A DNA stretch of 60,440 bases, filler included, from an uncultured virus (IMG/VR IMGVR_UViG_2124908030_000016) (Duplodnaviria; Heunggongvirae; Uroviricota; Caudoviricetes). It is 12 parts of one record of this genome, joined end to end, with 100 filler letters (N's around TTAATTAATTAA, not from the genome) between each part and the next. Parts side by side here need not be neighbours in the genome. Positions count along the whole stretch, not along the records: positions 9,766 to 18,978 come from IMGVR_UViG_2124908030_000016; 11 more parts are not named here. One strand, 5' to 3'. Position 1 is the first letter of the stretch; each line of letters starts with the position of its first letter. The notes below the pieces were generated by a model. That model did no database searches. It saw only the letters and a list, made by a program, of their open reading frames with translations, and was not told the origin of the DNA. Both the position numbers and the translations under genes were made by a program. Below are positions 7,569 to 56,675 of the stretch, in pieces.

Positions 7569-7675
7569 TGGACGTCGACTCGATCAGCCTGACCGACGTC
7601 GTTGCCCTCGAGTTCGTGACCGGCTTGGACGTCGACTCGATCCGCCTGGACGTCGACTCGATCCGCCTGGACGTC
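7569..7675. repeat. 21-bp tandem repeat TGGACGTCGACTCGATCCGCC
   Basis: Exact copies at 7626-7646 and 7647-7667, a partial copy at 7668-7675 and a near copy at 7569-7591. Confidence 0.85.
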
Positions 7676-8800
7676 CTCGAGCTCGTCATCGGGAGAGACA
7701 CGGTCGTCGATCGCGGGACTCGCGCCGGGGCGTCGACGTCGAGCTAGATCAGTCGTGTCGGCGGGACTCGTGCCGACGTCGGCCCCGACGGGACTTGATT
7801 CGACGAACCAGACACTAGTTCGAACAGCTATGAAGCCCCGAGACGCTCGCGGTCGCTCGGCGACATATCGACCCGACCGGGTCACTGTCGGTCGGGCCCA
7901 CGCGGGGGCGAACGTGACTCCTCGTCAGAGGCGCTTCGCGCTCGCACCGTGCGGATTAGCCACGTTGGGCCGTGTCGGGGCGGACGACGATACTCGGGCC
8001 CGGTCGGGCCGATAGGGCACGACCGAGCGACAGCGTCGCGAGCGGCACTCCCCTTGATCCCCCTCTCGGTGGGTCAGTTTGCCCTCCACGCTCAAACGGC
8101 TGATGTCCGAGGCTCATCCCCGCGCCTTGCCGAGCTGACGCACCCGAAACACGGCGAATTCGGCTCGGCGAGCCGAAGTTCGCCCGCATCGACCGGCTCA
8201 GCGAGCTGACCCGGCCGATTTCGGGCGCCTCAGCTGTCAAGTCACGCGGACTCCCTGCGCGCGCTCAATCACCACAAAGCACCGCACTCGCGCGCTCGGT
8301 CGGGGTCTATCCGACCTTCGCTTCCTCCACTCCTCGTCTCCTGCGCCCGCTCGAGAGCGGTCGCTTCGAACGGTCTGAAACGCTGAGATACCCGCTCTCG
8401 GCGGACCCTACCCGCTCGGTTACCGCACAGACCGCACTCGCGGGTCCCTTCCACCGACATCGCGCATCTCAGCATCCAGACCGTCCGAATCGGAACAGAT
8501 TCGCGCACGTCTCGAAACGCTGAACCACACCGCGATTCCGGCCGGTTCAGTCTAAGCTGAACCGGCACCGTCGGAATCGGGCGGTTCAGCATTCGAGACC
8601 CACGCCAATCTGGCCGTCTGGAGACGGCCTCGTCGGAACATTAATTTCTTCCAACTTGACCCTTCGGCTCATACGGCTCGGGCGACCAGCAGGGCACGTC
8701 GCGCACGCGCGGAACGCGCGCACGGAAATAGAATAGCGTCGCCCGAGCCGAACAGGGTCGCGTCCTGACGGCCAATGACGTGGTTGCCGATTCGCGGAAC

Positions 8801-9123
8801 TGCGGGCCCTGACCACCGACGGCCGATTCGGTCTCCGCAAAGCACCGCACGAATCGGCCGGCTCAGCGCTCCTCGCCCTCCACGAATCGACAATCTGTGC
8901 AGTGCACAGACCGTCAGAACCCGACAGGCGCTCCTGCGGGCCCTGACCACCGACGACCGATTTCCGGTGGAAATCGGCCGGCTCAGGGCTCCTCGAGGAG
9001 CGCGCCTGCCGAAGAGTCAAGTATGGAACCACGAGCGCCGGTCTGCTTGTTGCGGGCGCTGACCACCGACGGCCGATTCGAACTCCGCAAAGACCGCACG
9101 AATCGGCCGGCTCAGCGCTCCTC
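8801..9123. repeat. Array of three hairpin-forming repeats (60-74 bp) with unique spacers
   Basis: TGCGGGC(C/G)CTGACCACCGACG(G/A)CCGATT...AATCGGCCGGCTCAG(C/G)GCTCCTC at 8801-8874, 8935-8994 and 9051-9123. Confidence 0.9.
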
Positions 9124-9164
9124 ACGGCGCGGACGGCGCTCGTTGAAATCATACCTTCGTGTGT

Positions 9165-9765: not shown

Positions 9766-10318
9766 CCCCGCAGGCTGGCGGGGTGTTGCGGTAACAGCTC
9801 CAGGTCATACCGAACGGGACGTCGAGATCGTGGCCGGTGTCGACGATCCGTGTTTTCGAGTAGTCGAGAAACGGTGTCTGGAGAGAGATCGAGGTGCCGG
9901 GGGCTGTCCCAGTGATTATCGTTTCCTGGAAGGCGCAGAGAAACTCATACGCGCAGTCGGGGTACTGACTTTCGTGAATGCCCGTCCAGATAGCCGAACA
10001 GTTGTTGGCCTCGGCGTAGGCCGTCGCCATCGACAGGAGCGTGGCGTTTCGGAACGGCACGTATGTCTCGACGATCTCTCCGTCGATGGCTTCACCATCG
10101 GTCAGCGCTGAGCCCTGGAGGTCAGTCGTGTCGATGGTGTGGACGTTCGCGACGTCGTAGTGCTCACACAGCTCCAGGACAGCCTGGTGTTCGGCCTGAG
10201 CGGTTTCTTGGCCGTACGAACAGTGGACGACGTGTGTCTCACCATCGACCTGACAGGCCAGTCCAAGAGCTGTTGCACTGTCGAGGCCACCCGAAAGGAG
10301 GACCACATTGGATCTCAT
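9766..10318 (-). CDS. queC: 7-cyano-7-deazaguanine (preQ0) synthase QueC, 3' truncated
   Basis: SGGLDS PP-loop, YGQ, TYVPFRNA, YPDC, TPF...SK, TWSCY...CG. Confidence 0.95.
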
Positions 10319-10349
10319 TGCGACGGACCGCAGTCGTCAGAGACGAGAT

Positions 10350-11030
10350 CTAGACGTCTGCCGTCGGAGTCGGCTCGTTCGTGTCTGCCAGTCGCCGGAT
10401 CACGTAGAACGCCGGCGTGTCCAGCACCGCGACAGCCAGCTTGACCACGTACTGGCCCACGATCAGCTCGGGCAGGACGGCCAGGGGGGTCGTCGTCCCT
10501 CCGAGGAATACCGGGAGCACGGCGAAGGCCAGAACGATGAACAGCGCGGTGTCGACGATCTGACTGACGCCGGTCGAGCCGATGTTACGGATCCACGCGT
10601 GATCACCGTTGGTTGCCTCACCGAGGAACGCGAACACGGAGACGTCGATATTCTGACTGACGAGTGTGGTCGCGATCGACGCGAGGACGATGGTCCCACC
10701 GGCACCGAGGGTGGTCGCGTAGGCCTCGTTGGCCTCGAAGAACGGCGCAGCGGGCATCGAGATGGCCACGTAGATCAGTCCCCACGCAACGGTGAGGGCG
10801 ACGACGGTCGCGTTGACAGCTCGTCGAGCGGTCGGTGCGCCGTAGAGCTCGCCCAAGAGGTCGGTACAGAGGAACGCCACGCCGATCCCGACGAACCCGG
10901 CTGGGACGGCCACACCGCCCAGGAACGGGATGTCGAAGAACGCGAGCTTGGCTGCGGAGACGTTTGCGATAGCGATACTGACACCGAACATCACGGTGAG
11001 TGCGGTCGCAGTGAAGTTGTTGTTAGTCAT
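10350..11030 (-). CDS. yhhQ: Queuosine-precursor transporter, VUT/YhhQ family
   Basis: IANVSAAK, FLCTDLLGELYG, SQNIDV, WIRNIGST.VSQIVDT, K..VAVLDTP; multi-TM. Confidence 0.92.
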   Translation of the reverse strand: MTNNNFTATALTVMFGVSIAIANVSAAKLAFFDIPFLGGVAVPAGFVGIGVAFLCTDLLGELYGAPTARRAVNATVVALTVAWGLIYVAISMPAAPFFEANEAYATTLGAGGTIVLASIATTLVSQNIDVSVFAFLGEATNGDHAWIRNIGSTGVSQIVDTALFIVLAFAVLPVFLGGTTTPLAVLPELIVGQYVVKLAVAVLDTPAFYVIRRLADTNEPTPTADV

Positions 11031-11825
11031 CTGCGGGTACGAAGATAGAGGTGTTCTGCGTGCTGTGCTGGTCGAGGATCTGTTCGATCTCCGGAGAAAG
11101 TGGTTCCGTCGGGACGTCCGACTCGCGAACGTCTGGCCCCAGATAGTAGGTCAACTGGTAGAGGACGTACTCCTGGATCATCGCCGACAGAACCGAGGAG
11201 TTCGTCCCCCGTGGGTGGCCCCACTTGACGTACTCGAACTCCGGAGTCAGCATCTTGTTGCTGGTGACGGTGTTTGCGACACTCGACATATCGATGGAGT
11301 CGACGAGGTCGGGGGCCTCACGGAGCGTAGTTATCCACTGGGGTGATGCGCCGAACCCCAGGCCGTGGAGGTGGACACCGGGGGCGATGGCCTCTCTGAC
11401 TTCGACGAGTGCGCGAAGCTGACCCTCCATAGACCAGTCTTTCACGCCACCAACAGCGAGCCACTCGTCGTCGACGTCAAGGCCCTGGTCGGCGAACGCC
11501 TGTGTGAGCTGGTAGTAGTGCTCGGAGTGTGTCCCCACCTCACCATCGTCAGGCTGAAGCGGGATCATCACGGTCGGTCTGTTCTCACCGAGCTTCGCTA
11601 CCAGATCTAGGACTCGTTCGGTCGTCGCCTCCTGGTCGTGCCAGACGTCGGCTGGAACGACGACATCCGGGTCGATGTCACTGGTTCGCTTGATGACACG
11701 GTCGTTGCCGACATCGTCGTTTCCAATCGTGGAGTCGAGGATGTACGTGTCTGCTTGCTCAGAGAGCGTTGGTGACGCGTACTCGGTGTTGCCCAACAGA
11801 TGTGGGTACTCGAGCATCGCGAGTG
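11023..11825 (-). CDS. TGT-fold 7-deazaguanine transglycosylase-like protein (DpdA-like #1; 5' end may lie in the gap)
   Basis: ILDS, VPADV, IPLQ, LAVGGV, HLHGLGFG and DSIDMSS TGT-barrel motifs; coupled to yhhQ-queC. Confidence 0.75.
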
Positions 11826-12236
11826 NNNNNNNNNNNNNNNNNNNNGGTCAACGGGACAGACGACTGGGGTGCGAAAAACATCGTCAAGCACCACGTCGCA
11901 GATCAGCTCCACGTCGATGGTGACCAGGTCTCGGTCAGCATCGTCGAGGGGGGATCAACTAAACCCCACGGTGTGCCGGACCTCTCCCTCGAACGACAGA
12001 CACCACATTAGAGCAACCCGAATGGATCGAGACTGGAACCAGCATCTAAGACTGTGGAGAGTGGGGAACACCCGGACTCGACATCATCGTACTATAGGAG
12101 GGGACGGAGGCCGAGGTGGTGTGGCTGACCCGTCCTCCCCACGTACGCTCCACGTCGGTAACCGCGAATGACACAAGGGAGCGAGCCAACCGTGCTCACG
12201 CTCGGTCCCCCTCGTCCCTCGCTCGTCCGGGTGAAT

Positions 12237-12269
12237 CTACGAATAGCGTATCATATAGTGAAGGGAATG
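12237..12269. repeat. 33-bp AT-rich element with an inverted copy at 32326-32358
   Basis: CTACGAATAGCGTATCATATAGTGAAGGGAATG versus reverse complement CTACGAATAGCGTATTGTATAGTGAGGGGAATG: 30/33 identical. Confidence 0.85.
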
Positions 12270-12352
12270 CGGAGAGCCAGTCGCCGAGAATCGATGATTC
12301 CCACGGGGGGTGGGTTCAATAACCGCGAGCGACCGAAGGGAGCGAGCGCGTC

Positions 12353-12976
12353 CTACCCAATCACGTCGGAGAGGTCGAGACCGCCACTGTCCCCGTTCTC
12401 GTCTTCGACTTCGACTTCACGCTCGACCAGAGGGGCAGTCCGGTCGAGCTCGAGAAGCCCGTACTCTTCCAGGACGTCGTCGTCGATCCCGAGCTCCTGT
12501 GGGTCGGGGACACCCGAGAACGAGTCCGCGCCGACGGCGAACTCCTGGTTGGCGCGCTGGCAGAGCTCTTCGAGCATCGCGAGTGCCTCCAGTACGAACG
12601 TCGCACGGTGGCGCTCGTCGAGTTCTGGCTGACGAGCCACCCGAATAGTCTCCGTGAGCTCGGCGTGGAGAGAGCGTGAGCCAGCCCGGTTGTAGGCGAC
12701 GTGAGGCTGGTAAGGCTCACCCGAGACGTCGGTAAGGTCGACCTCGTCTACACCGGAGAGAGGCTGATCGCGAAGGCCCTCGAGTCGGTCGCGAGCATCT
12801 GCGAGGCAAGTGATCGAGTCGTCGACGTCGTCGTGACTGACGTACCAGTCGCTGTCCTCTGGGTATCCCCGTGGGTCGACGGCGTCCTGGGGAAGGTGCT
12901 GATGACGGACCTGAGCCGGGAGCAAATTGACACAGACGCCGTCGGTTCCGACCTCCTCGAGGTACTCACGTCGCAC
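12353..12976 (-). CDS. Hypothetical acidic protein
   Basis: Halophilic composition; GTG start at 12976. Confidence 0.65.
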   Translation of the reverse strand: MRREYLEEVGTDGVCVNLLPAQVRHQHLPQDAVDPRGYPEDSDWYVSHDDVDDSITCLADARDRLEGLRDQPLSGVDEVDLTDVSGEPYQPHVAYNRAGSRSLHAELTETIRVARQPELDERHRATFVLEALAMLEELCQRANQEFAVGADSFSGVPDPQELGIDDDVLEEYGLLELDRTAPLVEREVEVEDENGDSGGLDLSDVIG

Positions 12977-13116
12977 GCTTGACCCCCAGGAATGCGAACA
13001 CGAGTGCAAACAGCACCAGTGCAATTGCGGACAGCATTAGCGCTCGTCCCTCTCGTCGGAGTCGACCCAGTATCTGAAATAGACGACAAATCGTTCTGGC
13101 AGCACTGCAATGGTCA

Positions 13117-13335
13117 CTACTCTCCCCTCGGATGCGCCTCTCGGGTGTTGAACCGGATTGTGGACAGCTTACCGATCATCACGACCAGGCCGGCGAGCAC
13201 CGCGACCTGAAACGTCGACAGATCCTGGGCAAGGAGGAACCAGACTGCGAACCCGAGAAAGGCAACGGCGGTGAGGAACTCGAGGAAAGCGCCCAGGAAC
13301 GTAACGAGTGCCGATAGCGCTGAAAGGCTATCCAT
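13117..13335 (-). CDS. Small two-TM membrane protein
   Basis: MDSLSALSALVTFLGAF... with two hydrophobic helices. Confidence 0.6.
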   Translation of the reverse strand: MDSLSALSALVTFLGAFLEFLTAVAFLGFAVWFLLAQDLSTFQVAVLAGLVVMIGKLSTIRFNTREAHPRGE

Positions 13336-13504
13336 CGGCCCGGACATCCTCGAGCGAGAGCGGAAGCACGTCCACCGTGACGATCGCCTGGGCGAGCGAG
13401 AGCCACTCCCCATCGGGCGTCCGTATCTGATAGCCATCTCGACGTGCCAACACCCAGTCACCCGAGCGGTCCAGGACTTCAACGTCTGCGACGTGTGCGC
13501 TCAC
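13328..13504 (-). CDS. Small hypothetical protein
   Basis: GTG start 24 nt after the promoter dyad at 13528. Confidence 0.55.
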   Translation of the reverse strand: MSAHVADVEVLDRSGDWVLARRDGYQIRTPDGEWLSLAQAIVTVDVLPLSLEDVRADG

Positions 13505-14346
13505 AACCTCCGTACGTGAGTAACGCACTAAAGTCCACCGAAAACGACTTATCACTCCGGCGTGAAGGGTTGTTGATGTCACGAGACAGGCGAGGGAGCT
13601 CCTGGGACTACGAGATGACCGACTGGGGGGCTCACGCACGAGCTCGAGCTGTACCCGTCGAGTACGACTACGACGGCTGGGAGGGGTTCGTCTGGGAGTA
13701 GTAAACACACAAGTATAAAGTGCGTCGAGCTGTGTAAGGAGACAAGGTCTGGTTCTTCCCCACGGGTTTTCTTGAGGTCGAATTTATATCGTACAGTACA
13801 TTGTTGTCTGGACGTCGTGTTGTCACAGTAGGGGGGGAATACACGAGACGTGTCTCTTGATAGAGACAGGCCGGGTCGATCAACGCAGGAGCTGTCTCGA
13901 CGGACACCTCGTCGATCAAGACAGAACCATCACAACAGTACGCGTGTTATGCAAGTATCATCTCTGTCGTCGAGACAGTCGTGACCTAGGCCGATGGAGC
14001 CGATCCACGCTCGGGAGGGAGCCGTCTCGCAAGACGTCTGTAACCGCGAGCGACCGAAGGGAGTGAGCGGACGTCCATCGTGACACGCTCGTTTCGTCGG
14101 TAACCGCGAGCGACCGGAGGGAGCGAGCAACTCAGTTCGAGGGTTCCGTAACCGCGAGCGACCGGAGGGAGCGAGCAGGCGTCCAGTGGGCCAGAGTCTG
14201 TCGCTGTTGGTGTCGAGCTAATACTCGTGTGTGGGACAGTGAATAGTGTGGGCCCGCTCTCCGCGTCGCTCGTGTCCGTCTGTGCCGATTCGAGTGTGGT
14301 CGACACGACCATACTGTTGTTCTGAGNNNNNNNNNNNNNNNNNNNN

Positions 14347-15094
14347 AGTCTTCGTCTTTGATACGGAGGTCGATACCGTGGTGGATCAGCTGGTGTTCGT
14401 CCTCGGGAACGACGGAGATGTTCTCGGGTCGGTTGTCGATCTCGAGGTGGTTCTCGTGATGCACGTTGGTATCGTCGCTGAAGACCTCGGAGACCGAGTT
14501 CTCCTCGAGAGCACGGAGTTGGTGGAGACGGAGGGAACACTCTTCTATCGAGAACTTGGCGTATCCGTGAGCTCGGTCGTACTCGTAGTAGAGAGATGGA
14601 GCTGGTGTCGAGGATGCTATCTCCGCTGGGTAGGGGTCGTCTTTCACGATCCCGTGGGTGGAGCACGCTCGACTGATTCCACTTTGATCTGTTTCGGTTA
14701 GCAGTGAGACCTTTGCTTGTGTGAGATCGTCTGTAATGTACTTCCGACGAAGCCAGGCTGCACTGTGGTGAAGTTTCTGGACACCATATTCGTGGTGTTC
14801 GTCCGAGAGGCCGAACTCGTCACACCAGTTGTCGATTGTATCGGTGGAGACACCACAACACTCGGCGATTTCGGTTTTCTCGACTCCGTCGTCGATGTAT
14901 ATCTCGCGAAGCCACGGCTCCTGTTGGTGGCGAACCGTGAGATCGTATTCTCGACACCAACGACCGATGGTCGACCCGGTGACCCCACACAGTCGGCCAA
15001 TTTCCCTCTGAGTGAGATTCTCTGCAACGTACTTCTCACGGAGCCATTGTTTGCGACGATATCGAACGTCGGCCGAAGACTCGGTTTTCGACAC
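14347..15094 (-). CDS. HNH homing endonuclease with three N-terminal HTH repeats
   Basis: Three WLR.kY repeats; VHHENHLEIDNRPENI....HQLIH HNH motif. Confidence 0.85.
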
Positions 15095-15124
15095 AGTTAG
15101 CGTTTATTCTCCACGCAGGTAATT

Positions 15125-15247
15125 CTATCGGCTTCTTCGACGTGGCAAGAACATATAGCCGAGAACGAACAGACCGATTGAGAGGCAGGATGCGACAAAC
15201 CCGCCGACAAATGCCCACATCATCCATATCACCCACTGAACGCCCAT
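15125..15247 (-). CDS. 40-aa single-TM peptide (not in ORF track)
   Basis: MGVQWVIWMMWAFVGGFVASCLSIGLFVLGYMFLPRRRSR, downstream of the promoter dyad at 15269-15253. Confidence 0.5.
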   Translation of the reverse strand: MGVQWVIWMMWAFVGGFVASCLSIGLFVLGYMFLPRRRSR

Positions 15248-15387
15248 CTCGTGTATATTCACTTTACACGTAATTAATTCTTTTGGGTGTCACTCGTATT
15301 CGGCTGGCTGAGAAAGCGGAGGGGTAATCGGGTGACGGTGCCCCACCGAAGTCACTGGCGTTCCAGCCAGTGCCTCGGAGGGTGTGT

Positions 15388-15861
15388 TCAAAAGGAGAAT
15401 TCGGTTTTGATCTCGTCCCAGGCATCCTCGAGGTTGAGGATCAGCTCGTCGTTGACATTCTCACCCATCGGAATGGACGTCGTGAGCAGTCCCGACATCA
15501 CACGCTCGATCTCACGGCGCTGGTTATTGTTGTGGATATCACATTCGCGGAGCGTCTGGGCCCACTCCGTGGAGGGGAGCTCGCGAAGGGTGTCTTCCCA
15601 CATCTGAACAGCTGACTCCCTGGCGGTGGGTACGCGCTCGGCGTAGTAGACCTCACCTACGAGATCCTCTACATCATCACCGGTCAGGTCGGTCGTGTCG
15701 AACAGCGCATTCAGCACTTCGCGGGCGAACTGGTCATCATCGGCCTCATCAGGACGCGAACGCTGGGTGCTCGTGTGTGTATCTCCCTGTTTGATACCGA
15801 CCGCGAGGAAGAGATCGGAGCCGAAGGCGACTGTGGTTGGAGCTTGGGTATGCTCTGTCAC
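15388..15861 (-). CDS. Hypothetical protein
   Basis: Acidic 157-aa ORF with a promoter-motif variant upstream and a T-tract downstream. Confidence 0.65.
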   Translation of the reverse strand: MTEHTQAPTTVAFGSDLFLAVGIKQGDTHTSTQRSRPDEADDDQFAREVLNALFDTTDLTGDDVEDLVGEVYYAERVPTARESAVQMWEDTLRELPSTEWAQTLRECDIHNNNQRREIERVMSGLLTTSIPMGENVNDELILNLEDAWDEIKTEFSF

Positions 15862-16022
15862 ATTTGTCGTACGCGTTTGAAGAACTTTACACTATCGTTT
15901 GTACTACTCGGGGTATCGCTAACTGTCGTTCGGGCTCGACGACCGCGAAGATATCGTCGAGGCGATCACTACCGTCGAGCGTCGTGAGTGTAGGTGAGTT
16001 TCGATGAACCCGAATCGGCCTA

Positions 16023-16796
16023 TCAGAGTGTATCGGTCTGGAGTGCGGTCTTGGGAACGTACGAGTGGAGTACGTTGAGGAGCGCCCAGGTCGCCCTGAT
16101 GTCGTCGCGGTTGTGTTCGACGACAGCGGAGAGGTCGTGCCTGGAGAGTGCGTTCGGGATGTCTGCACCGCCGAGGGGGCTGGTTGGCTCGAACTCAGTC
16201 AGGAGTTTGGCCATTCCGTCGAGCGAGCGCTGACTCGAAGTCGGGACGTCCCGGTCTTGTTGATCGATGAACGCGGAGAGTTCAGCCGGCTGGGGATCTC
16301 GCTGTTCGATGGCCTCAGCGATATCGCTCTTGTAGGCATCGCTGGGGTAGTCCACCTCGAGGTAGTCGGCGAACTCGCCGAGTGGGCGTTTGTTGAGCCC
16401 GCCCCAGTCCGGGGTTGTCAGATTGAAGAACGTCTCGAGCTCGTCTTTGATTTCGAGGATCTCGGCATCGACGAGTGGCCAGTCGACGTCGAGCTGAGCA
16501 CATCGCGAGCGGAGCATCGGGATGTCGAACGAAGAAGACCCGTAGCGCTGTTCTGCGTTGAAACCGACGAGTTTCGTGGTCAGGAGGCTGTGCTCGTCGC
16601 ACAGTGCCGGCAGACCCTTCGCGAGAAGGTTTGCTTCGCAGCTGTATTCCTCGATGGTTCCGTTCTCGATGTCGGGGGGGCCGTATTTTCCGTTGAGGTA
16701 GAACGTCACCTCGTCTCCGGTTCCGACACCGATGACGGCGACCTCGCTGTCGGCGGTCAGTCCCGTTGTCTCGATATCGAATGCGACGTAGTTCAT
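16023..16796 (-). CDS. DEDD / RNase H-like 3'-5' exonuclease with an inserted HeH/Rho-N-like helical motif
   Basis: AFDIETTG, VGFN...FDIPML, SLD, HNRDDI; insert LGEFADYLEVDYPSDAYKSDIAEAI. Confidence 0.8.
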   Translation of the reverse strand: MNYVAFDIETTGLTADSEVAVIGVGTGDEVTFYLNGKYGPPDIENGTIEEYSCEANLLAKGLPALCDEHSLLTTKLVGFNAEQRYGSSSFDIPMLRSRCAQLDVDWPLVDAEILEIKDELETFFNLTTPDWGGLNKRPLGEFADYLEVDYPSDAYKSDIAEAIEQRDPQPAELSAFIDQQDRDVPTSSQRSLDGMAKLLTEFEPTSPLGGADIPNALSRHDLSAVVEHNRDDIRATWALLNVLHSYVPKTALQTDTL

Positions 16797-16826
16797 CGTA
16801 CGCGCAATTGTATTCACGTTAAGAAG

Positions 16827-17276
16827 TTATAACTGTCGACTTGGAGTATGGAGTGCAATATCGTCGGGGTTGAACGCCACATCGTGGTTGTTGCAGACGG
16901 TAACGATGGTGTCGATGCCATCGTCGAGGTCGCTCCGGAGACTGGTGGCGGGGTATTCTGCCCAGACGCTGACAGGATCTGGGGAGTCCCAGACGATAAA
17001 ACACACAGGACGGTGGATGATGTCTCCCAGGAAGCACTCCACGGGTGTCCCCCAGGTTGGTTCTCCGGCGTAGTGGACCAGCAGGCCGTCGGCCTGACCG
17101 ACTCGACTGAGGTCGTTCGCGATCAGCTCGTCGGCCGGGGGGAGCGCGTCCGGTTCGTAGTCGTCCAGTGGGTTCAGTGTCGAGACACGGCTGTCTCGCT
17201 CGACTCGTTCACGCCAGGACCGGCCGGCATTCTGCGCCTTCCTGACGGGCCCAGCGAGGTAGATGAGTGGGTTCAT
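16827..17276 (-). CDS. Nucleoside 2'-deoxyribosyltransferase / dNMP N-glycosidase-like protein
   Basis: IYLAGP, WR, LNP, DL..V..ADGLLV, GTPVE. Confidence 0.8.
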   Translation of the reverse strand: MNPLIYLAGPVRKAQNAGRSWRERVERDSRVSTLNPLDDYEPDALPPADELIANDLSRVGQADGLLVHYAGEPTWGTPVECFLGDIIHRPVCFIVWDSPDPVSVWAEYPATSLRSDLDDGIDTIVTVCNNHDVAFNPDDIALHTPSRQL

Positions 17277-17296
17277 NNNNNNNNNNNNNNNNNNNN

Positions 17297-17545
17297 CGAT
17301 GCCCACGAGCTACGCTCGATATCGCTGAAGTCGTGAAGCGTCGTGTCGTACGGGTCGATTCGGTCGTCGAGCTCGAGGAGCCCGTACTCTGCGCTCACGA
17401 TGTAGGGGTCGCCGAGGTAGGTCCCAGTCGTGAGTTTCGTCTCGAAGTACGTCGAGTCGTACATCGCGTAGGCTGGCAGACGCTCGTCACGCTTCGACGA
17501 GCCACAACCGACCAGTATAGCGCGACGTCCTGTATCGCAGTCCAC
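17297..17545 (-). CDS. DUF6884-like protein (3' end in gap)
   Basis: LVGCGSSK....A..MY.S.YF......IVSAEYGLL.....I.PYD.TL. Confidence 0.7.
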
Positions 17546-17586
17546 GACGTTTTGTATACGTTTGACGAACTTAATCGTTGTGTATA

Positions 17587-18534
17587 CTATGAGTAGATGT
17601 CGGCGAAGATCTGCTGGGCTTCTTTATCGCTCGAGGCGTTGACTGCCGGACTTTCGTAGTCGACTGCGGACTCGCCCTGTTGGAGCCGGGTGACGTAGGA
17701 GTAGTAGCTCTTGAACGACTCGACCTTGCGCGCTTTCAGGTTTCCAGGAATGTTGAAGCGGGCGAGTCTGTTGCCGATATCGACACTGACGTACTCGTTC
17801 ATTGCTGGGTAGAGCCAGGCCTGGGTGTCCGCCGACTCGAACTCAGAGCCGTACTGAAACGCCTCGATCTTCACGCCGAACCCGTGGATGATTTCGGGGT
17901 CGATCCGTGAGCGGACGGCCTGTTCGTAGTCGACGATCTCCGGGTCATTGGAGATGCCCGTGATAGAGCCCAACCCGACGTGGTCAGTTGGCAGACCGTG
18001 GTCCTCAAGCCGTTCATAAAATGCAACGTGCTCGTCCGGTGTCGTGCCCTGAAGTACGGGGAGAAGTTGGTAGTCGGCCGACGAGTCTTCGAGGCGTTCG
18101 TACTGGCGGAGTGTATTCTGGAAGGTCGTCTCGATACGATCGTCGGACGACCAGAGACCGTCGAAAAGTTCTGAACACGCATAGTCCATCGCAGACGCCC
18201 AGGTTACTTCGTCGTCGTAGTCGGCGAGCCACTGGTGGTAGTCCTCGACTGTCCAGGGGTAGAACGGAGATGGCGTACAGAGTTCTTTGACGATGTCGTC
18301 TCCGGTGATGTCTGCATCGAGCTCACCATCTCGGGTGACGAACGTCGACTGGACATTGTAGCCCCCGGCGTCGATTGCGTGGGGACAGTCGTACGTCCAC
18401 ATATGGAGGAGGCGTTCCTGGGCGTCAGAGTATCGATGGAGAGCGTTCGACAACAACGGGACATCGTTTGCTTCTGCCCACGGGGCGATTATGTCCGGGT
18501 ATGACCGGGCGTAGGTCATAAAGAATGTGCCCAC
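17587..18534 (-). CDS. dpdA: Phage-type deazaguanine DNA transglycosylase (DpdA-like #2)
   Basis: IDAGGY, Y..W, AMDYAC, LLPVLQG, VGLGSI, IHGFGVK, SADTQAW. Confidence 0.8.
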   Translation of the reverse strand: MGTFFMTYARSYPDIIAPWAEANDVPLLSNALHRYSDAQERLLHMWTYDCPHAIDAGGYNVQSTFVTRDGELDADITGDDIVKELCTPSPFYPWTVEDYHQWLADYDDEVTWASAMDYACSELFDGLWSSDDRIETTFQNTLRQYERLEDSSADYQLLPVLQGTTPDEHVAFYERLEDHGLPTDHVGLGSITGISNDPEIVDYEQAVRSRIDPEIIHGFGVKIEAFQYGSEFESADTQAWLYPAMNEYVSVDIGNRLARFNIPGNLKARKVESFKSYYSYVTRLQQGESAVDYESPAVNASSDKEAQQIFADIYS

Positions 18535-18610
18535 GATACACTACAGGGTATCACGCACTTAATTATTGCTGTTGCTGATCGGCTTCGAAAAGAGAAGTGT
18601 GGGTTCGGCG

Positions 18611-18978
18611 TTACGAGTCGAGCTGGTCCTGGATCTTTTCCGGGACCTCGACTCCCTGCTGACGGCAGGCGGTGGCGATCGTCTCAGCATCTGGTCGGTG
18701 CCACTCCAGGTAGCCCGTCGAGAGGACCAGTGACTCGTCGGGTTCGAACTCCTCAGTCGGCGAGAGTTCGGTGAACCCGTCACCGTCGCGACTCATTACA
18801 GTCGCCCAGTAGCCGGAGTCGGTGTCGAGCGCGGGTTTGTTCTCTGCACGCTCGAGCACGAAGACGACTTCCTCACCATCGAGGTCGGGCCGGAGCTGCG
18901 TGTCTCGGCTGAACCGTGGGGGCGAGTAGTTGTTGTCGTCGTTGTCCGGGCAGTACTCGATCAGCGAGTTGCTACGCG
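18611..18978 (-). CDS. Hypothetical protein (5' end in gap)
   Basis: Open acidic frame extending to the gap. Confidence 0.5.
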
Positions 18979-19175: not shown

Positions 19176-19409
19176 GTGAGCAAGACCATCTACATCAACG
19201 GTACAGCCTTTGACATCCCAGCAGACACCGAGACAATCGCCGAGGTGCTGGAGTCGACAAACTACAGTCAAACCAACTATCGGCTCTTTCGAGATGTCGG
19301 GAATACGGTTGCTGCCGAAGAGCGTGTCGTGAGTGCAACCCAGATCGGTGATGGGCAGCAACTCATCGCGATCCCACGCGGAGAGACACTGTTCGGGTAC
19401 GATGAGTAA
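19176..19409 (+). CDS. Ubiquitin-like (multi-ubiquitin beta-grasp) protein
   Basis: IYINGTAFDI...TIAEVL......YRLFR.......IGDGQQLIAIP....G pattern. Confidence 0.55.
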   Translation: MSKTIYINGTAFDIPADTETIAEVLESTNYSQTNYRLFRDVGNTVAAEERVVSATQIGDGQQLIAIPRGETLFGYDE

Positions 19410-20190
19410 AATCACCCCCTTTCCCTGGTACGGGTCGAAATACACCCAAGTATCGTGGCTACTGGACATCATTCCGGAGAACAACCGGTACCTGGAGCCG
19501 TTCGGGGGGAGCGGAATCGTCCTCGCCAACCGTGACCCAGTCGAGGTCGAGACGTTCAACGACATTCACGGTGGTGTGGTGAACTTCTTCGAGGTCGTGC
19601 GGAGACAGCCGGGTGAGCTGAAGCGACAGCTCGAGTGGACACCGTACTCTCGGGAGATGTACCAACAGGCAGTCGAACACACGCCAGAAGATGACGTCCA
19701 GCGTGCAGTCTATTTTCTGGTTCGGATCGCACAGTCGTTCGGAGGCGCAGAAGCGAACGGGTGGGGACGCTCGATCACTACCTCTCGTCGAGGCAAGGCA
19801 CAGCGTCCGGCTGCCTGGGAACACCGGCTCGAGCAGATCGAAGAAGTGGCGAAGCGGTTTCGACGAGTCCAGCTCGAGTCGACCGACGCGATCGGGCTGA
19901 TCGAGGACTTCGATGAATCGAAGCTCACCATCTACTGTGATCCACCGTACCCACCATCAGCCCGTGTAGCCAAGAACAAATACGTCCACGAGTTCGATGC
20001 CGACCAGCATCGACAGCTCGCAGAGACGCTTCGTTCGTGTGAGGCTGACGTTGTTGTCTCTGGGTATCGATGTGATCTCCTCGACGACTGCTACGACGGA
20101 TGGAACTGCTATCTCGAGGGCGAAAAGACTCTCGCAGGGGCTGAAACAGGGTCTCGAGAAGAGGTCTGTTACACGAACTTCGATGGCTGA
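19402..20190 (+). CDS. DNA adenine methyltransferase, D12/Dam class
   Basis: PFPWYGSK, EPFGGSG, NDIH, DPPY. Confidence 0.92.
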   Translation: MSKITPFPWYGSKYTQVSWLLDIIPENNRYLEPFGGSGIVLANRDPVEVETFNDIHGGVVNFFEVVRRQPGELKRQLEWTPYSREMYQQAVEHTPEDDVQRAVYFLVRIAQSFGGAEANGWGRSITTSRRGKAQRPAAWEHRLEQIEEVAKRFRRVQLESTDAIGLIEDFDESKLTIYCDPPYPPSARVAKNKYVHEFDADQHRQLAETLRSCEADVVVSGYRCDLLDDCYDGWNCYLEGEKTLAGAETGSREEVCYTNFDG

Positions 20191-20857: not shown

Positions 20858-23677
20858 CTATCGTTGGCTGGGGAACGGTTCGTCGTACTGGTCGGCGAGG
20901 TCGTGGAGCATCTGGATGATGGGAATGCCATCGTCCTCGTCGAGATTGACGATAGCTTTCTTTGACGACTTCACCAGGGAGTTCCATTCCACGGACGAAC
21001 GGTCGAACGTATCCGTCGGGAACAGTGCGTGGAGGAACACAGAGATGAACCGGTCGCGCCAGTTGTCCGAGCTGAACAGTCGTCTGGAGTTATGATTCAT
21101 TGGCTTGTTCCAGCGACGACTTGAGACGAAGTGAAGATCAGGTGCCGTCGACGTCGGTTGAACTGGGGTAGTGCCGGAGAGACAGCACCAGTGTTTGGTG
21201 ATGGATTGTGGATCGGAGATGACAAGGCGGTCGTACGTTTCGAGATCATCGAGTGTATCCCTACTGTCGAACCGCTCGAGGAGATTTGGAAGTGGGTCGT
21301 CGATGAATATGCCATCGCCGTTGACCCACGTATTGAGTCCGTGCGCGACAGGTTCGGTGAACACCCAGTAGAGTGTCTCATCGCCGAGTTTGTTCGCTTC
21401 GACTGATTCTGTCGTGACAGTACGTGGGGGTCCGTCGTCGTACTGGTCGAGTGGGATGGTTTCGACGGGTGAGGTCTCGTGTGCCTCGGCGATGGGGTCG
21501 AACGAGCTGACTGCCCGGTCGTGATCTAACAGGTAGTCTGCGACGTACCGTGGGACAATGGTTCGACGGATACCGAATTGAGAGAGCTTGCTCCCTGCTG
21601 AAACACTCTGGACATCAGGTTGCTCGTACACCAGTAGGAAATCGAACTTGTCGTTGTCGAGTGCTTCGATGGCCTGGTCACAGGTCATCTCTCTGTACGA
21701 GCCTCGGGGAGTATTGGTGCGGATCTTGATCTTCCGGTCACTAGGGTTGTTTGCTGTCCCAGTCGACCTCGAGGACGAATCCGGGGAACCCGAGCTCGAG
21801 CGCTCGTACCTTTCAGCGAGTTCATCGCTCACATTCGGGTGTTTCTCTTTGATATTGTACAGCGAGAGGTCCTTCAGTTTCTTCCAGTCGAACGCACGCT
21901 CGAACATCTCGTACTGGCCAGAGTCTGAGAGAGTGACGATGACGACGTCGTCGTGGATAGCTTCGGCGAGTTTGGCCTTCTGATTGTTTATTGAGACACC
22001 CATATACACCGTTTCGCATTTCCGTTCGATCTTGCCTGCCAGCGAATTGGATCCTCCGCCGATCCCGGAGCAGTCGACGTGCTGGCAGATCTGAGACAGG
22101 ACACGCCCGGTGTCTTCACAGGATAGTGATAGATTGAGTTCGTCGGTGACGTTATTCAGGATTGTTTGGTGCGTTACCCGCCTCGAGCGTGGAGAGCTGA
22201 CGTGTTCGACGAACTCCATCAGGAGTTCCATTTCGGCGCTGTCGAACGCCGAGACAGCAGACACACCGTCTTTGTGGATGTCCATCACCAGCTCTGTGAC
22301 TTGTGAGCGGAGCTGGTCGTACAGTCGATTCGCGACCGATTTGAACACCACGCTGTCGTGATCACGAAGTCGATCGCGGTCGTCGACGGGTTCTGGGAGT
22401 GGGATGTCGCTGGTGTCACACGCAGACTGTTTGACGTAGTACTCGAGATGTGGTTCCGCGCGGGCCCAGAACTCGTCGCGACTGACGACTGGTCTCCCTT
22501 CGTATTCGCCATCGACGACGGTTTTCTGTTGTTCCGTGTCGTCGACGGTCGCCATATGAGGCAGGACTGATTCACAGACGACATCGACTGCCTGGAGTGC
22601 TTCTCGCTCGTAGCGTTCATCACTGATCGGCACAGACCCGGTGTGTGGCCCGGTGAACAGACGACCGTCTTCGAATTTCAGCCTGACGTCGAAGTTCCAC
22701 AGCGACGAGTACGACCCTGTGTAGGTATCCTCGTTTCGGTCGATAGGCATCGACACGAGGAACGTCTCGGTTTCGTTCTCGTCTAGATACGGTGATGAGA
22801 CAGCTTCGATGAACTCATCTTCGTATGTGACTGTACACCGGTCGTCCGGAATCCTGTTGCTGAGTTCCGACGGTGGGTACTCCTCGTTGAGCGTCTCGTT
22901 GCCTGACTCGTCGTACTCGTGATAGATGACGGGGACACGAAGGCCCTTCTGGAACCGTTCGACGGCCTCCTGGATGTCGAGGTCGCGAGCATCTTGTGTG
23001 AATGACGGGAACGTCCAGGTCGTTCCATAGTGCTCACGAGCTCCCTGGAGGTCATTGAACCCGTCAATGCGCATCTGTACGCGATAGTTAGCGTCATCGA
23101 AGAACGACTACGTCGTGAGTCCGAGCCGGCCGTTCTCTCCGACGAAATTGAATCCACTCATCACACCTTGGCCGAACATTCCTGACTCGTCACCCTTGTC
23201 GTGTGACGTCGAGAGACCGATCTTTCGGAGGACACGGAACTCTTCGATGCTGATTCCAACGCCGTTGTCGGCGATAGTGAGGGTCGGTTTATCCGACTCG
23301 TGGTGTGCGTGGTGAACCTCGATGACTGGGAGATACCCAGTGTCGTTTCGCGCGCACTCGATCAGCTCGGTCGGTGAGAGATCAGCAGTCTCTCCCTCGA
23401 GCTCACATCGACAGCGACGAATACCAGCAGTTTCAGCATTAGCGATGTACTCACGAAGTGCTGAGGCAGGGTCCTCGTACCGAAATGCGAATCCTCGGCC
23501 AGCACGTCGCTTGTCGTATTGGAACTCTCTGTGGTCCGAATCACCGAGAGCTTCCTTCAGGTCGTGGTCTGTGTTTGCCCCATCGACCTGTTCGGGGGGT
23601 CTAACGTCCCCCGGTACGTATTGGGACTCGTTGAACGGCTGCTTATGACTCATCGACAACCGGTTCTCAGTACTCAC
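20858..23677 (-). CDS. rIIA-like / MORC-type GHKL ATPase protein with an in-frame TAG at 23108-23110
   Basis: ALREYIANA, IADNGVGI and GMFGQG motifs; ORFs 23108..23677 and 20858..23074 are in the same frame. Confidence 0.75.
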
Positions 23678-23746
23678 AGCACGTAATTCTATCGCAGACG
23701 TGTATATACGACAAACTAAAGTGCTTCTGTGTGTAACACTACTTCG

Positions 23747-24316
23747 ATGGGACGACCCTTAGACGAACGCTTGCGCGCGACTGTACTCAGTCAAGACGAG
23801 ACGAGCTATCTCGTCCAGTACTCCGACGGATCGACGGAGATCGAATCACGGAACACACGGAACAAACTCTGCTTCGAGACAGACGTCTTCGACAGTGCGT
23901 CTGAGGAGTTTACGCTGTCTGGTCGAGGTCACTACGACGGTGATGGCGACGGCTACCACGTCGAGCTGACTTTCACTCTCTTCGGTAGTGAAGATCTGAT
24001 CAGGGTGAGCTTCGACTCTGGAGCCGACGTGCGGGAGGTTCGGAACTTCAGCCAGTCTCAGCGCGATCGACTGCTCTCGATCACTATCGACGTAACTGAG
24101 AACACTGATCGCGACGACGACAAGGATGATTCGCTCTTTTCCCTGAGTCAGTCCAGTGCCGAGGATATCCTCGCAATAGCAAAGACAGCTCGGTCCAACA
24201 GAGTCGACCAGCACTGTCGAGCCGTTCATCGAGCAGTACGGACAGATGTCGTGTGGGATGGAGACAGCTGTATCGTCGAGATGCGTCGTGTGACGAGAGT
24301 CCGAGACTACTTCTGA
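23747..24316 (+). CDS. Hypothetical protein
   Basis: Acidic ORF after a promoter-motif variant at 23721. Confidence 0.6.
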   Translation: MGRPLDERLRATVLSQDETSYLVQYSDGSTEIESRNTRNKLCFETDVFDSASEEFTLSGRGHYDGDGDGYHVELTFTLFGSEDLIRVSFDSGADVREVRNFSQSQRDRLLSITIDVTENTDRDDDKDDSLFSLSQSSAEDILAIAKTARSNRVDQHCRAVHRAVRTDVVWDGDSCIVEMRRVTRVRDYF

Positions 24317-26322: not shown

Positions 26323-26538
26323 ATGGACAAGGTAGTTCTAGAAAGTGACAACGAGTATTGTCACGCCTGTACGGAACCACTAGACGTCGAGAGTGGCGTC
26401 TGCACCAAGTGTGGGGCATCTATCGCAGGGGCGAAGTACCGGCCGTGTCTCGATTGTGGGTACACGAACCCGACAGCTCCGGATAGCTGTGCTTCGTGTG
26501 GCAAGTCGATCCTGTTCGAAGATACCTACGTCATCTGA
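26323..26538 (+). CDS. Double zinc-ribbon protein
   Basis: Four CxxC motifs. Confidence 0.75.
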   Translation: MDKVVLESDNEYCHACTEPLDVESGVCTKCGASIAGAKYRPCLDCGYTNPTAPDSCASCGKSILFEDTYVI

Positions 26539-26540
26539 GA

Positions 26541-27131
26541 GTGACTAACGTACAGATCTATCTCGCTGGAGCACGTTCTGCGGGAGACAACCCCTACGAG
26601 TGGCACGAGCGGGCACAGGAGTACGTCCAGGCGCCTGTCGAGGCAGTCAACCCATTCACCATCCACGATGATGATGCGGGGGAAGTTGAGTACTACATCG
26701 GCGACCTCGACGCCATCGAGGAGGCCGACGCGCTGTTGGTACGACGCGCTCCTGAGGTCGAGACCTGTGGGGCGTATATCGAGGCCGGATGGGCTGGTCG
26801 TGGCAACACACCAGTTGTCACCTGGAACGATGGGGACGGAGAGATCCCGGACTTCCTCAAGTGGCACTCGATCCACTACTCTGATGACCTGGAGGAGATC
26901 GTCGAGTTCGCCTGTAGCCTGGCGATGGACGTCACAATGCTCGGAGATGAGCGTAGACTCGAGGATCAACTCGAAGAAGTCCTCCAGGACGTCCATCGCG
27001 AAGGGCAGTACACCTACGAAGATGCCGTCTCGAACAACGCCGGAGATTATCTCCAGGGCCGAGGTGCAGGGATGAAGACCGCGGTGAAGAAGATCGTTCG
27101 CGAGCTCGAGTTGAACGTCGACCTCGGCTAG
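26541..27131 (+). CDS. Second NDT / dNMP N-glycosidase-like protein with a C-terminal extension
   Basis: IYLAG, VNPF, DLDAIEEADALLV, GAYIEAGWA, PVV. Confidence 0.8.
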   Translation: MTNVQIYLAGARSAGDNPYEWHERAQEYVQAPVEAVNPFTIHDDDAGEVEYYIGDLDAIEEADALLVRRAPEVETCGAYIEAGWAGRGNTPVVTWNDGDGEIPDFLKWHSIHYSDDLEEIVEFACSLAMDVTMLGDERRLEDQLEEVLQDVHREGQYTYEDAVSNNAGDYLQGRGAGMKTAVKKIVRELELNVDLG

Positions 27132-29294: not shown

Positions 29295-30667
29295 AGTTCC
29301 TCCAGAGAGCCCGCAATCGAGTGGAAGACCGGCTCCATATCACACGATTCGTCGTGGCTGAAAACCGACACACGCTCCGTATGAGCGCGCTTGAGGACGA
29401 CTCGCTTTCGGACGTTGAATACCGGAATCGCGTCTCCAAATATCTCTTCGAACCAGTCGACCATTCGTTCCGATTCACCGTCGATGTCGATTCTGTTGAC
29501 GACAACACCGGNNNNNNNNNNNNNNNNNNNNNNNNNNNNNNNNNNNNNNNNNNNNNNNNNNNNNNNNNNNNNNNNNNNNNNNNNNNNNNNNNNNNNNNNN
29601 NNNNNNNNNNNNNNNNNNNNNNNNNNNNNNNNNNNNNNNNNNNNNNNNNNNNNNNNNNNNNNNNNNNNNNNNNNNNNNNNNNNNNNNNNNNNNNNNNNNN
29701 NNNNNNNNNNNNNNNNNNNNNNNNNNNNNNNNNNNNNNNNNNNNNNNNNNNNNNNNNNNNNNNNNNNNNNNNNNNNNNNNNNNNNNNNNNNNNNNNNNNN
29801 NNNNNNNNNNNNNNNNNNNNNNNNNNNNNNNNNNNNNNNNNNNNNNNNNNNNNNNNNNNNNNNNNNNNNNNNNNNNNNNNNNNNNNNNNNNNNNNNNNNN
29901 NNNNNNNNNNNNNNNNNNNNNNNNNNNNNNNNNNNNNNNNNNNNNNNNNNNNNNNNNNNNNNNNNNNNNNNNNNNNNNNNNNNNNNNNNNNNNNNNNNNN
30001 NNNNNNNNNNNNNNNNNNNNNNNNNNNNNNNNNNNNNNNNNNNNNNNNNNNNNNNNNNNNNNNNNNNNNNNNNNNNNNNNNNNNNNNNNNNNNNNNNNNN
30101 NNNNNNNNNNNNNNNNNNNNNNNNNNNNNNNNNNNNNNNNNNNNNNNNNNNNNNNNNNNNNNNNNNNNNNNNNNNNNNNNNNNNNNNNNNNNNNNNNNNN
30201 NNNNNNNNNNNNNNNNNNNNNNNNNNNNNNNNNNNNNNNNNNNNNNNNNNNNNNNNNNNNNNNNNNNNNNNNNNNNNNNNNNNNNNNNNNNNNNNNNNNN
30301 NNNNNNNTGTTCCGACGAGCTCGTCGATGGCGTCTGTGAGTCGGAGTCGGCCTCGCATCGCGTTGTACAGGTCCTGCTCTGCGGTGAACAGGTCCATATT
30401 TGACGGAACGACGTCCATCTCGTCGTGTACGAGCACGACGTCGTTGAGGTCGTTGGTTTCGTTGAGTAGCACTGACGGGAAGTTCGGTGGCTCGTTGAGG
30501 TACTCGTCTCTGAACCCGAGTCCCTCGGTTGCGTTTCCCTGCGGGTCGCAATCGACGAAGAGGACGTCGTGTCCCCGCTCGTTCAGCGCACCTGCGACGT
30601 TGATGCTGACCATTGTCTTCCCGACCCCGCCTTTCTGAAGCGAGACAGCGACGTGTGTTGCTGTCAT
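29291..30667 (-). CDS. parA: ParA/Soj partition ATPase (middle in the gap 29512-30307)
   Basis: QKGGVGKT, VDCDPQGNAT, DVVPSN; C-terminal GVVVNR...VRKRV.L.RA. Confidence 0.9.
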   Translation of the reverse strand: MTATHVAVSLQKGGVGKTMVSINVAGALNERGHDVLFVDCDPQGNATEGLGFRDEYLNEPPNFPSVLLNETNDLNDVVLVHDEMDVVPSNMDLFTAEQDLYNAMRGRLRLTDAIDELVGTXXXXXXXXXXXXXXXXXXXXXXXXXXXXXXXXXXXXXXXXXXXXXXXXXXXXXXXXXXXXXXXXXXXXXXXXXXXXXXXXXXXXXXXXXXXXXXXXXXXXXXXXXXXXXXXXXXXXXXXXXXXXXXXXXXXXXXXXXXXXXXXXXXXXXXXXXXXXXXXXXXXXXXXXXXXXXXXXXXXXXXXXXXXXXXXXXXXXXXXXXXXXXXXXXXXXXXXXXXXXXXXXXXXXXXXXXXXXXXXXXXXXXXXXXXXXXXXXXXXXXXXXXXGVVVNRIDIDGESERMVDWFEEIFGDAIPVFNVRKRVVLKRAHTERVSVFSHDESCDMEPVFHSIAGSLEEL

Positions 30668-30953
30668 TGACCTCAACGATATCAACGAAATCACCTAAAT
30701 CTACGTCAGACGCCAGTCTGACTGCCTTTCTAAACTCGTGTAAAAACAACGACTTCAGAACCCTACACGTCGTGAAGACATCTGGCGAAGGTAGGGAATC
30801 TCCACTCCCTCATTCACGATAACCTTCGCTCCCCATTTTTGAGTCAAGGGTCGTTTTTTCCTTGGCTTTAGATGCGTTCGCATATCGACTCGATTCGGAT
30901 ATTAGTTGTACGCAAGCAAACTCTTAATACTGCCGGTTAGCGATATCACCCGT

Positions 30954-32310: not shown

Positions 32311-32434
32311 TAGGTCGGGAAAGCTCATTCCCCTCACTATACAATACGCTATTCGTAGCGAAGACGCTGCTGTCTTTCGTTTAACGAATAAACTTCGCGT
32401 AAGAATTACGTGTGTGTCTCTGGTACAGTAGTTG

Positions 32435-56540: not shown

Positions 56541-56559
56541 GCGATGAGTAAGCGGTCGT

Positions 56560-56635: not shown

Positions 56636-56675
56636 TCTTCGTAACAATTAGGTGCGTCAACTACGTACGACGAGT

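Follow-up and report, generated by a model that had tools for sequence, protein, structure and literature searches.

We analyzed a window of 60,440 nucleotides of the uncultured virus IMGVR_UViG_2124908030_000016, a virus-like element that may be a large haloarchaeal virus or a plasmid resembling one. As drafted, the window is made up of 22 pieces with N runs and linkers between them, and the segment under study consists of four of these pieces (9766-11825, 11846-14326, 14347-17276 and 17297-18978), parted by three 20-N gaps. All on the minus strand, it carries two genes for DpdA-like transglycosylases, referred to here as dpdA#1 (11023-11825; related to a protein of Halorubrum tailed virus 29, HRTV-29) and dpdA#2 (17587-18534; of the Orion/Bella96 family), together with the 5' part of a DUF6884 gene (17297-17545), yhhQ (10350-11030), coding for a queuosine-precursor (preQ0/preQ1) transporter, and queC (9766-10318), coding for 7-cyano-7-deazaguanine (preQ0) synthase.

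The order of the pieces in the draft is wrong, as an alignment of contigs from four public runs to the window showed. In one of the runs (X1), a contig of 4722 nucleotides covers both 17297-18978 and 10698-11825, with 282 letters between positions 17297 and 11825; this same contig carries both dpdA genes and has no differing letter across 2810 aligned bases. A second contig of run X1 (1394 nucleotides) joins position 9766 to position 17276, with 70 letters between them. No joint was seen in runs X2-X4, whose coverage of the window was partial. The first joint had been suggested by the order DUF6884-dpdA#1-yhhQ in close relatives (complete in locus L015, with the start of yhhQ in L013), which implied that the piece ending in DUF6884 adjoins the piece starting with dpdA#1, and the contigs then confirmed it. 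A third close relative (L014) shows dpdA#1-yhhQ, with only 107 nucleotides present upstream. The DUF6884 gene is 426-468 nucleotides long in L015 and L013 as against the 249 present here, and the sequence expected to be missing at the 11825/17297 joint (the rest of DUF6884 and about 73 nucleotides of dpdA#1) is about 250-290 nucleotides, compared with the 282 found. At the second joint about 20 codons of queC were expected to be missing, compared with a gap of 70 nucleotides. The minus-strand order is thus dpdA#2, DUF6884, dpdA#1, yhhQ, queC, a nucleoside 2-deoxyribosyltransferase (NDT)-like gene and an exonuclease gene, with one bridging contig at each joint, and the two dpdA genes lie one gene apart on one strand. 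The piece at 11846-14326 (no strand assigned), which the draft places between the dpdA genes, is misplaced: the 11825-17297 joint skips it, and from its two free ends (11846 and 14326) the contigs continue into other places. An earlier note on this DNA had dpdA#2 heading a separate cluster, but this arrangement was an artefact of the assembly, the X1 contigs joining 11825 to 17297 and 17276 to 9766.

The loss of two short words across the pieces fits a single genome, independently of the contig joints. CATG does not occur in the whole window (122 expected) and is therefore absent from 22 of 22 pieces; GCSGC occurs once (77 expected) and is absent from 21 of the 22. Seven large comparison loci retain both words. 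GCWGC (36 against 97 expected) and CTAG (28 against 66) are also depleted in the window. Depletion of these four words is probably the result of avoidance of host restriction sites, and can be used as a signature for binning the remaining pieces of the element.

The first gene of the corrected cluster, dpdA#2, is an open reading frame (ORF) running from 18534 to 17587, and codes for a protein of about 315 residues. The protein passes the Pfam model PF23859 (34.8 bits; cut-off 27), which is also precomputed on all of its listed relatives, and is 31% identical to Bella96 DpdA over 170 residues. The Orion/Bella96 members themselves score 586 and 468 bits with this model (Orion, 468), which matches none of the four DpdA proteins of 9g, Rosebush, 7-11 and MED16. 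Within the family, the protein falls in an acidic clade (pI 4.24), with 103 relatives at 38-56% identity. Its AlphaFold model has a predicted local distance difference test score (pLDDT) of 95.7, and the best structure match is to the bacterial DpdA 7ui4 (Z 18.7, with an rmsd, or root-mean-square deviation, of 2.9, 241 residues aligned), with further matches to 1iq8 (Z 18.4) and to Cap10 (9ntn; Z 13.4). The catalytic set comprises D50, D112, Q157-G158, G182/G184, H212, F214 and D231 (P0016 numbering); D50, D112, Q157-G158, H212 and D231 are found in 90/90 aligned sequences, the alignment holding 90 of 105 family proteins. The protein has three cysteines. Scans of IMG/VR with the alignment and with dpdA#2 alone gave no confirmed locus, and a search of PDB sequences with the family profile returned a chance hit only.

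The frame of dpdA#1 runs from 11823 to 11023, and codes for a protein of about 290 residues; some 25 N-terminal residues are cut off by the gap at 11826, and relatives have 27 additional residues ahead of its first Met. A tblastn search related it to the protein of HRTV-29 named DpdA (gp33; 27.8% identity, E 3e-6), its sole relative in the phage collection, which reaches 218-241 bits when compared with dpdA#1-family profiles. The protein passes no Pfam model, PF23859 giving 12.2 bits, below the cut-off of 27. The family has 271 representatives at 50% clustering (E <= 0.001), and the type occurs in 24/401 Halobacteria genomes (E < 1e-10). The AlphaFold model (pLDDT 85.9) matches 1iq8 (Z 16.3, rmsd 4.2, 244 aligned) and 7ui4 (Z 15.4, rmsd 3.7, 218 aligned), a tie for best match by the rule of the tool, and Cap10 (Z 13.6). 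A structure search made for dpdA#1 only also found the DpdA of nt-1 (14% identity) and of phiST (12%), at TM scores of about 0.5. The catalytic set consists of D28, D57, Q88, G123-G124, H151, L153 and D176. Among the 138 collected relatives of 200-345 residues, D28 is conserved in 137, D57 and H151 in 138, Q88 in 136 and D176 in 135, and G123 and G124 of the Gly loop in 137 and 135, respectively. In the family, 27/156 proteins end in QxxLxx[FWY], about one being expected; we take this tail to be PCNA-box-like, and it may point to replicating DNA as the substrate of the family. One family member adjoins Dam and cytosine methylase genes. A scan of IMG/VR with a close dpdA#1 alignment gave no confirmed locus, and the ESM Atlas offered no family name. 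Taken together, there is a case for regarding the HRTV-29 type, to which dpdA#1 belongs, as a putative DpdA subfamily outside the DpdA1 and DpdA4 profiles.

Long N-terminal extensions were seen on six dpdA#1-type proteins (P0139, P0148, P0153, P0156, P0162 and P0220). Five of these have in common a domain of about 140 residues of no known family, and the extension of P0220 holds a domain that is ParB-like by impression, with no Pfam match.

Both ORFs, and all the motifs that the earlier note quoted for them, are present, and its description of the two proteins as dissimilar is borne out: BLASTP aligns them only at E >= 2.9, and their family profiles align with a probability of 95% (E 3.7e-8) at 17% identity over 127 columns. 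A recent duplication was considered and rejected, there being no similarity detectable by BLASTP. Foldseek placed tRNA-guanine transglycosylases (TGTs) and DpdA 7ui4 first for both models. In the VIA structure search, the top five matches had the TGT fold for both dpdA#1 (Z 12.9-16.3) and dpdA#2 (Z 13.4-18.7), the next folds scoring 11.2 and 11.8; identity to the bacterial DpdA is 10-14%. The active site of bacterial DpdA contains D95, D130, H181, G206-G207, L236 and D256 (PMC10164549, available part), and equivalence to D95, D130 and D256 was set by motif order and strand position rather than by residue-level superposition. As modelled, both proteins qualify as members of the TGT/DpdA superfamily, with a TGT-type TIM barrel, three active-site Asp residues plus Gln/His, a Gly loop and a stacking residue. 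None of the three conditions that the earlier note named as refuting its reading (different source genomes, absent catalytic Asp residues, lack of the TGT fold) was borne out, and its proposal that a single molecule encodes two DpdA-like transglycosylases, both of them intact, now has stronger support than before.

Family placement was based on profile scores, which we judged more reliable than a tree at 10-17% identity. Neither protein matches DpdA4/DUF6610 (PF20314) at E 0.1, and HRTV-29 has no such match either, the control HVTV1_69 scoring 190.8. There was no BLASTP match at E 0.01 of either protein to DpdA1 of the 9g/Rosebush type, and their own profiles give 9g only 11 bits. Neither protein looks like a tRNA-acting archaeal TGT (aTGT) in its sequence: there is no PF01702 match for either, and at about 290 and 315 residues, compared with 577 in 1iq8, the two are too short to hold the C-terminal domains of an aTGT. 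Also, dpdA#1 has no cysteine and hence no TGT-type zinc site, given the ligand pattern that we assume for TGTs. The loop facing the 7-substituent is GG[VLI][KA] in the dpdA#1 family and G[TS][VI]C in the dpdA#2 family (GSIT in dpdA#2 itself). Because the loop differs between the families, it is plausible that the two enzymes recognize different target motifs or different bases. The inserted base is not predictable from the GGhsbb and GGhsG rules (PMC10164549, available part), since neither loop cleanly fits them.

The assignments of yhhQ (TIGR00697, 126.8 bits, cut-off 50.95; PF02592, 141.3 bits) and queC (PF06508, 150 bits) made in the earlier note hold. The start of yhhQ overlaps the stop of dpdA#1 by 8 nucleotides. 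QueC is 34% identical to QueC of HVTV-1 (E 2e-30); its last 20 or so residues lie in the gap, which cuts the gene inside the C-terminal CxxCxxC. We did not find folE, queD, queE or queF in the window; the queries cross-detect phage homologues, with those for QueD being insensitive. Haloarcula genomes encode the preQ0 pathway. The DUF6884 gene, directly after dpdA#2 and unnamed in the earlier note, matches PF21818 (66.2 bits; cut-off 30), with its remainder in the gap; we regard it as a candidate accessory of the YaaA/DpdC-like kind. The ESM Atlas gave no function for it. No match to DpdB or DpdD-K was detected among the seven cluster proteins scanned.

Two further genes complete the run on the minus strand. 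The NDT-like gene (16827-17276; PF05014, E 2e-4, below the cut-off) follows queC in the corrected order, and shows small indels relative to run X1 near 17000 and 17137, where the draft may hold sequencing errors; a second gene of this kind lies at 26487-27128. Downstream is a gene for a 3'-5' exonuclease of the RNase H-like type (16023-16817; PF13482, 31.1 bits, cut-off 22). The earlier suggestion that the modification stands alongside Dam methylation was not confirmed: the adenine methylase (19333-20187) is of the D12 class and lies across a linker from the cluster, and GATC is mildly depleted (400 against 512 expected).

Among the closest known arrangements is that of HRTV-29 (a Dpdavirus), where gp33 was mentioned as a DpdA homolog (Liu 2021; PMC8651126, available part). 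There, as here, a DUF6884 protein (gp32, named YaaA; 108.7 bits) is encoded directly upstream of the dpdA#1-type gene. In contrast to the cluster described here, HRTV-29 has no preQ0 genes according to the available part of that paper, and no dpdA#2-type match turned up in it; the virus does not appear in the table of DpdA1-4 in the supplement of Cui 2023. The family that dpdA#2 has in common with Orion and Bella96, whose singleton DpdA proteins were placed in the same DpdA column as that of 9g (Hutinet 2019, Supplementary Data 1; PMC6884629), is represented here by a member of the acidic clade that sits with queC and yhhQ. HVTV-1, likewise haloarchaeal, combines a DpdA-type insertase with QueC in a system for 2'-deoxy-preQ1 (dPreQ1; PMC6884629, PMC10516641), to which its relative HCTV-1 adds YhhQ; however, its single listed DpdA is of the DpdA4/DUF6610 type and is accompanied by FolE, QueD, QueE and QueF, none of which was found in the window. 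For the environmental halophage eHP-6, the accessions of dpdA and yhhQ follow one another (Hutinet 2019, Supplementary Data 1), but only one dpdA and no queC are listed. Bacterial DpdABC (Salmonella Montevideo; 7ui4; PMC10164549, available part) resembles the cluster in fold, in catalytic set and in the weak likeness of DUF6884 to DpdC, whereas the cluster has no zinc site, no DpdB or DpdD-K match and only 10-14% identity to it. Further literature of the field, in the parts available, is found in PMC8306585, PMC13329287, bioRxiv 10.1101/2025.10.29.685425 and bioRxiv 10.1101/2023.04.13.536721.

Pairing of DpdA types recurs, both on haloarchaeal plasmids and in the mycobacteriophages Knocker and Funsized. 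On a Halobaculum plasmid of 149 kb that carries thyX and ribonucleotide reductase genes, a dpdA#1-type gene is followed immediately by a PF23859 gene, and a Salinibaculum plasmid has two genes of each type, one of them neighbouring Dam and cytosine methylase genes; queC was not found on either plasmid. Another genome (G209) has two dpdA#1-type genes about 2 kb apart. The two types occur together in 3/400 Halobacteria genomes, compared with 0.69 expected (P 0.026, a value that ignores kinship and element load). Knocker has DpdA1 and DpdA4 in its row of Data S1 of Cui 2023, and in Funsized a DUF6610 domain (111.6 bits) is encoded by gene 1 and a DpdA by gene 3. Knocker and Funsized are thus alike in having two DpdA subfamilies (a DpdA4-type domain and DpdA1) in one preQ cluster, but the subfamilies are other ones, one DpdA is fused to a ParB-like part, and the pathway is complete and includes QueF. 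The earlier note had suggested that such a layered system could be undescribed. We found no text that discusses a two-DpdA pairing, including the main text of Cui 2023, which is silent on Knocker, and no described two-DpdA system in the literature searched, although subscription reviews might mention one; yet the Knocker row had been published before, in a supplementary table. Three things are new: the cluster of five genes in its corrected order, the combination of these two families with a supply of precursor, and the arguments for a dpdA#1 subfamily with a DUF6884 partner; the base-swapping strategy against restriction is itself already known.

Two observations touch on these pairs. Within about 115 kb of plasmid NZ_CP129994.1 (L072, L112-L116) lie four DpdA-like genes, which belong to two types; one of them is beside Dam and three cytosine methylase genes, and the genes are annotated as hypothetical where seen. 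Gene 1 of Funsized (L079:1-1299) is annotated as ParB-like and yet holds the DUF6610/DpdA4 domain.

Two separate protein families, each with the TGT fold and intact catalytic motifs, are encoded in one gene order, shown by a single bridging contig at each joint. On balance, we lean towards the view that they form one same-strand cluster in which both DpdAs, each at its own motifs, insert preQ0 into the DNA of the element itself, the base coming from host synthesis, QueC and YhhQ. The host would make 7-carboxy-7-deazaguanine (CDG) and preQ0 for its own archaeosine, and QueC (converting CDG to preQ0) and YhhQ (importing precursor) of the element may enlarge this pool. Both DpdAs would excise guanine from replicated element DNA and insert preQ0 by the double displacement of TGTs. 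Each may read its own sequence context, as known DpdAs differ in motif (GA and GGC for CAjan but GA only for iggy, in the available parts of the sources), so that the pair could protect a wider set of restriction sites than either alone, by the same logic with which mobile elements gather several orphan methylases. DUF6884, as a putative accessory of dpdA#1, may mature part of the 2'-deoxy-preQ0 (dPreQ0).

Several points weigh against this model. Each joint is supported by one contig, at a depth of about 6 and from one run of the four, possibly the source of the window itself, and the analysis covered 60 kb of a 123-kb record. The residue near the first Asp of dpdA#1 is Ile rather than an aromatic one (in the family, Ile in 80/138 and Phe in 28/138), dpdA#1 itself has no PCNA-box-like tail, and such a tail is found in 1/104 of the dpdA#2 family. 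Each type mostly occurs without the other, and the two are adjacent in only one of the three genomes that have both. Finally, the DNA of Orion, the one tested member of PF23859, is unmodified, though the Orion host has no preQ0 (PMC6884629, available part), and the literature consulted shows DNA modification for no member of either family.

The main alternative, which we consider unlikely, is a layered modification with two bases, preQ0 and 7-amido-7-deazaguanine (ADG): dpdA#2 would leave dPreQ0, and dpdA#1 together with DUF6884, as a small DpdC-like hydratase, would yield the deoxynucleoside of ADG (dADG), or else dpdA#1 would take ADG or CDG directly. DpdC converts dPreQ0 to dADG (PMC10164549, available part). 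DUF6884 of the window matches the PADLOC DpdC models weakly (E 2e-4 and 4e-4), as do 6/6 further DUF6884 proteins (E 8e-5 to 0.03 for all seven), but the matches are partial, spanning 50-100 residues only. DUF6884 lies within 700 nucleotides of 12/41 dpdA#1-type genes and 0/18 dpdA#2-type genes, a count in which 13 duplicate loci were dropped, short contigs were taken as misses and two of the 41 rows stand for one weak, ambiguous gene; it also occurs as a fusion to either end of dpdA#1-type proteins (P0172, P0188 and P0234), and the loops for the 7-substituent differ between the families, as noted. Conversely, 29/41 dpdA#1-type loci have no DUF6884 nearby, and DUF6884 occurs in 219/401 Halobacteria genomes, with a DpdA in the fetched flank in 0/30 of the best loci. 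As a general source of dADG in phages DUF6884 was rejected: it is carried by 0/5 phages, including the dADG-bearing 7-11, MED16 and HVTV-1. We would give only a small chance to the fullest form of this idea, in which the cluster writes two 7-deazaguanines at two motifs, the Orion-type enzyme inserting preQ0 and the HRTV-29-type enzyme, as a fifth viral subfamily in which a PCNA-binding tail would be frequent, giving dADG with DUF6884 as a minimal DpdC.

Redundancy seems less probable still. A DUF6884-dpdA#1-yhhQ cassette may have recombined beside a resident dpdA#2, the two enzymes doing the same job or one of them being dispensable. Consistent with this idea, in L013 and L015 the cassette is not directly preceded by a dpdA#2-type gene, members of either family are mostly found without the other, and the two genes are not a recent duplication. 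However, both genes are intact, compact and co-oriented, co-occurrence recurs on other replicons, and families this divergent are unlikely to have one motif in common.

It is quite improbable that one of the enzymes acts on tRNA, as a minimal aTGT or by salvaging the base from host archaeosine, a possibility raised in the earlier note that has found little support. The aTGT 1iq8 is at the top of the dpdA#1 structure matches (in a tie with 7ui4), and RtcB and an RNA ligase are encoded in the window; but the absence of PF01702 matches, of cysteine in dpdA#1 and of a long C-terminus, and the PCNA-box-like tails in the dpdA#1 family, argue otherwise. Similarly improbable is a scheme resembling Cap9/Cap10 of type IV CBASS (cyclic oligonucleotide-based antiphage signaling systems; bioRxiv 10.1101/2025.04.06.647259, available part) or Qat, in which QueC attaches the deazaguanine to a protein and the TGT-like protein receives it, or a dpdA#1/dpdA#2 heterodimer like QTRT1/QTRT2. 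The cluster does contain queC, and Cap10 ranks third and fifth in the structure searches; however, QueC looks canonical, it scores 14 bits with the QatC model (cut-off 280), no CD-NTase (cGAS/DncV-like nucleotidyltransferase) or QatB partner was found among the scanned ORFs of the window, YhhQ points to a supply of free base, members of each family are found alone, and neither copy has lost its catalytic residues. The least probable explanation is an assembly chimera of different genomes, which the linker-joined draft, its wrong piece order and the bridging by one run might suggest but which the mismatch-free contig carrying both genes, the fitting gap size and the word loss, unlike in the comparison loci, contradict.

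The element encodes PolB, ribonucleotide reductase, ThyX, dCTP deaminase, Hjc, RtcB and ParA. Among 72 ORFs of the window searched with Pfam and 28 with PHROGs, none was recognized as coding for a capsid, portal or terminase protein. The RtcB and RNA ligase genes lie close together at 55059-57804, which suggests tRNA repair against host anticodon nucleases. An element of about 30-44 nucleotides, possibly regulatory, is repeated at 12150-12430 and 14000-14190 in the piece 11846-14326, with single copies in the pieces 17297-18978 and 30308-34428. Short tandem repeats and direct repeats of 74 nucleotides are found in a gene-poor region at 7570-7690 and 8800-9130, possibly an origin or terminal region. 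A HATPase-type protein (phrog_23723) extends over two consecutive ORFs (20858-23758), and is split or frameshifted.

Viral 7-deazaguanine systems are described with a single DpdA per genome, of classes DpdA1-4. The cluster raises the questions of whether the Orion type is active when given preQ0, which base the HRTV-29 type inserts, whether DpdAs are multiplexed at the level of the motif or of the base, and which role DUF6884 has; and because two families of putative insertases lie beside the same precursor supply, a single experiment can address all of these. New motif-specific, salt-adapted DNA insertases would serve as labelling tools. If both enzymes merely insert preQ0 at different motifs, the cluster would extend a known strategy against restriction only modestly. 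If instead two bases are written at two motifs, haloarchaeal viruses and plasmids would stockpile DpdAs as they do methylases, and the lost CATG and GCSGC would be the restriction sites left unprotected by both enzymes.

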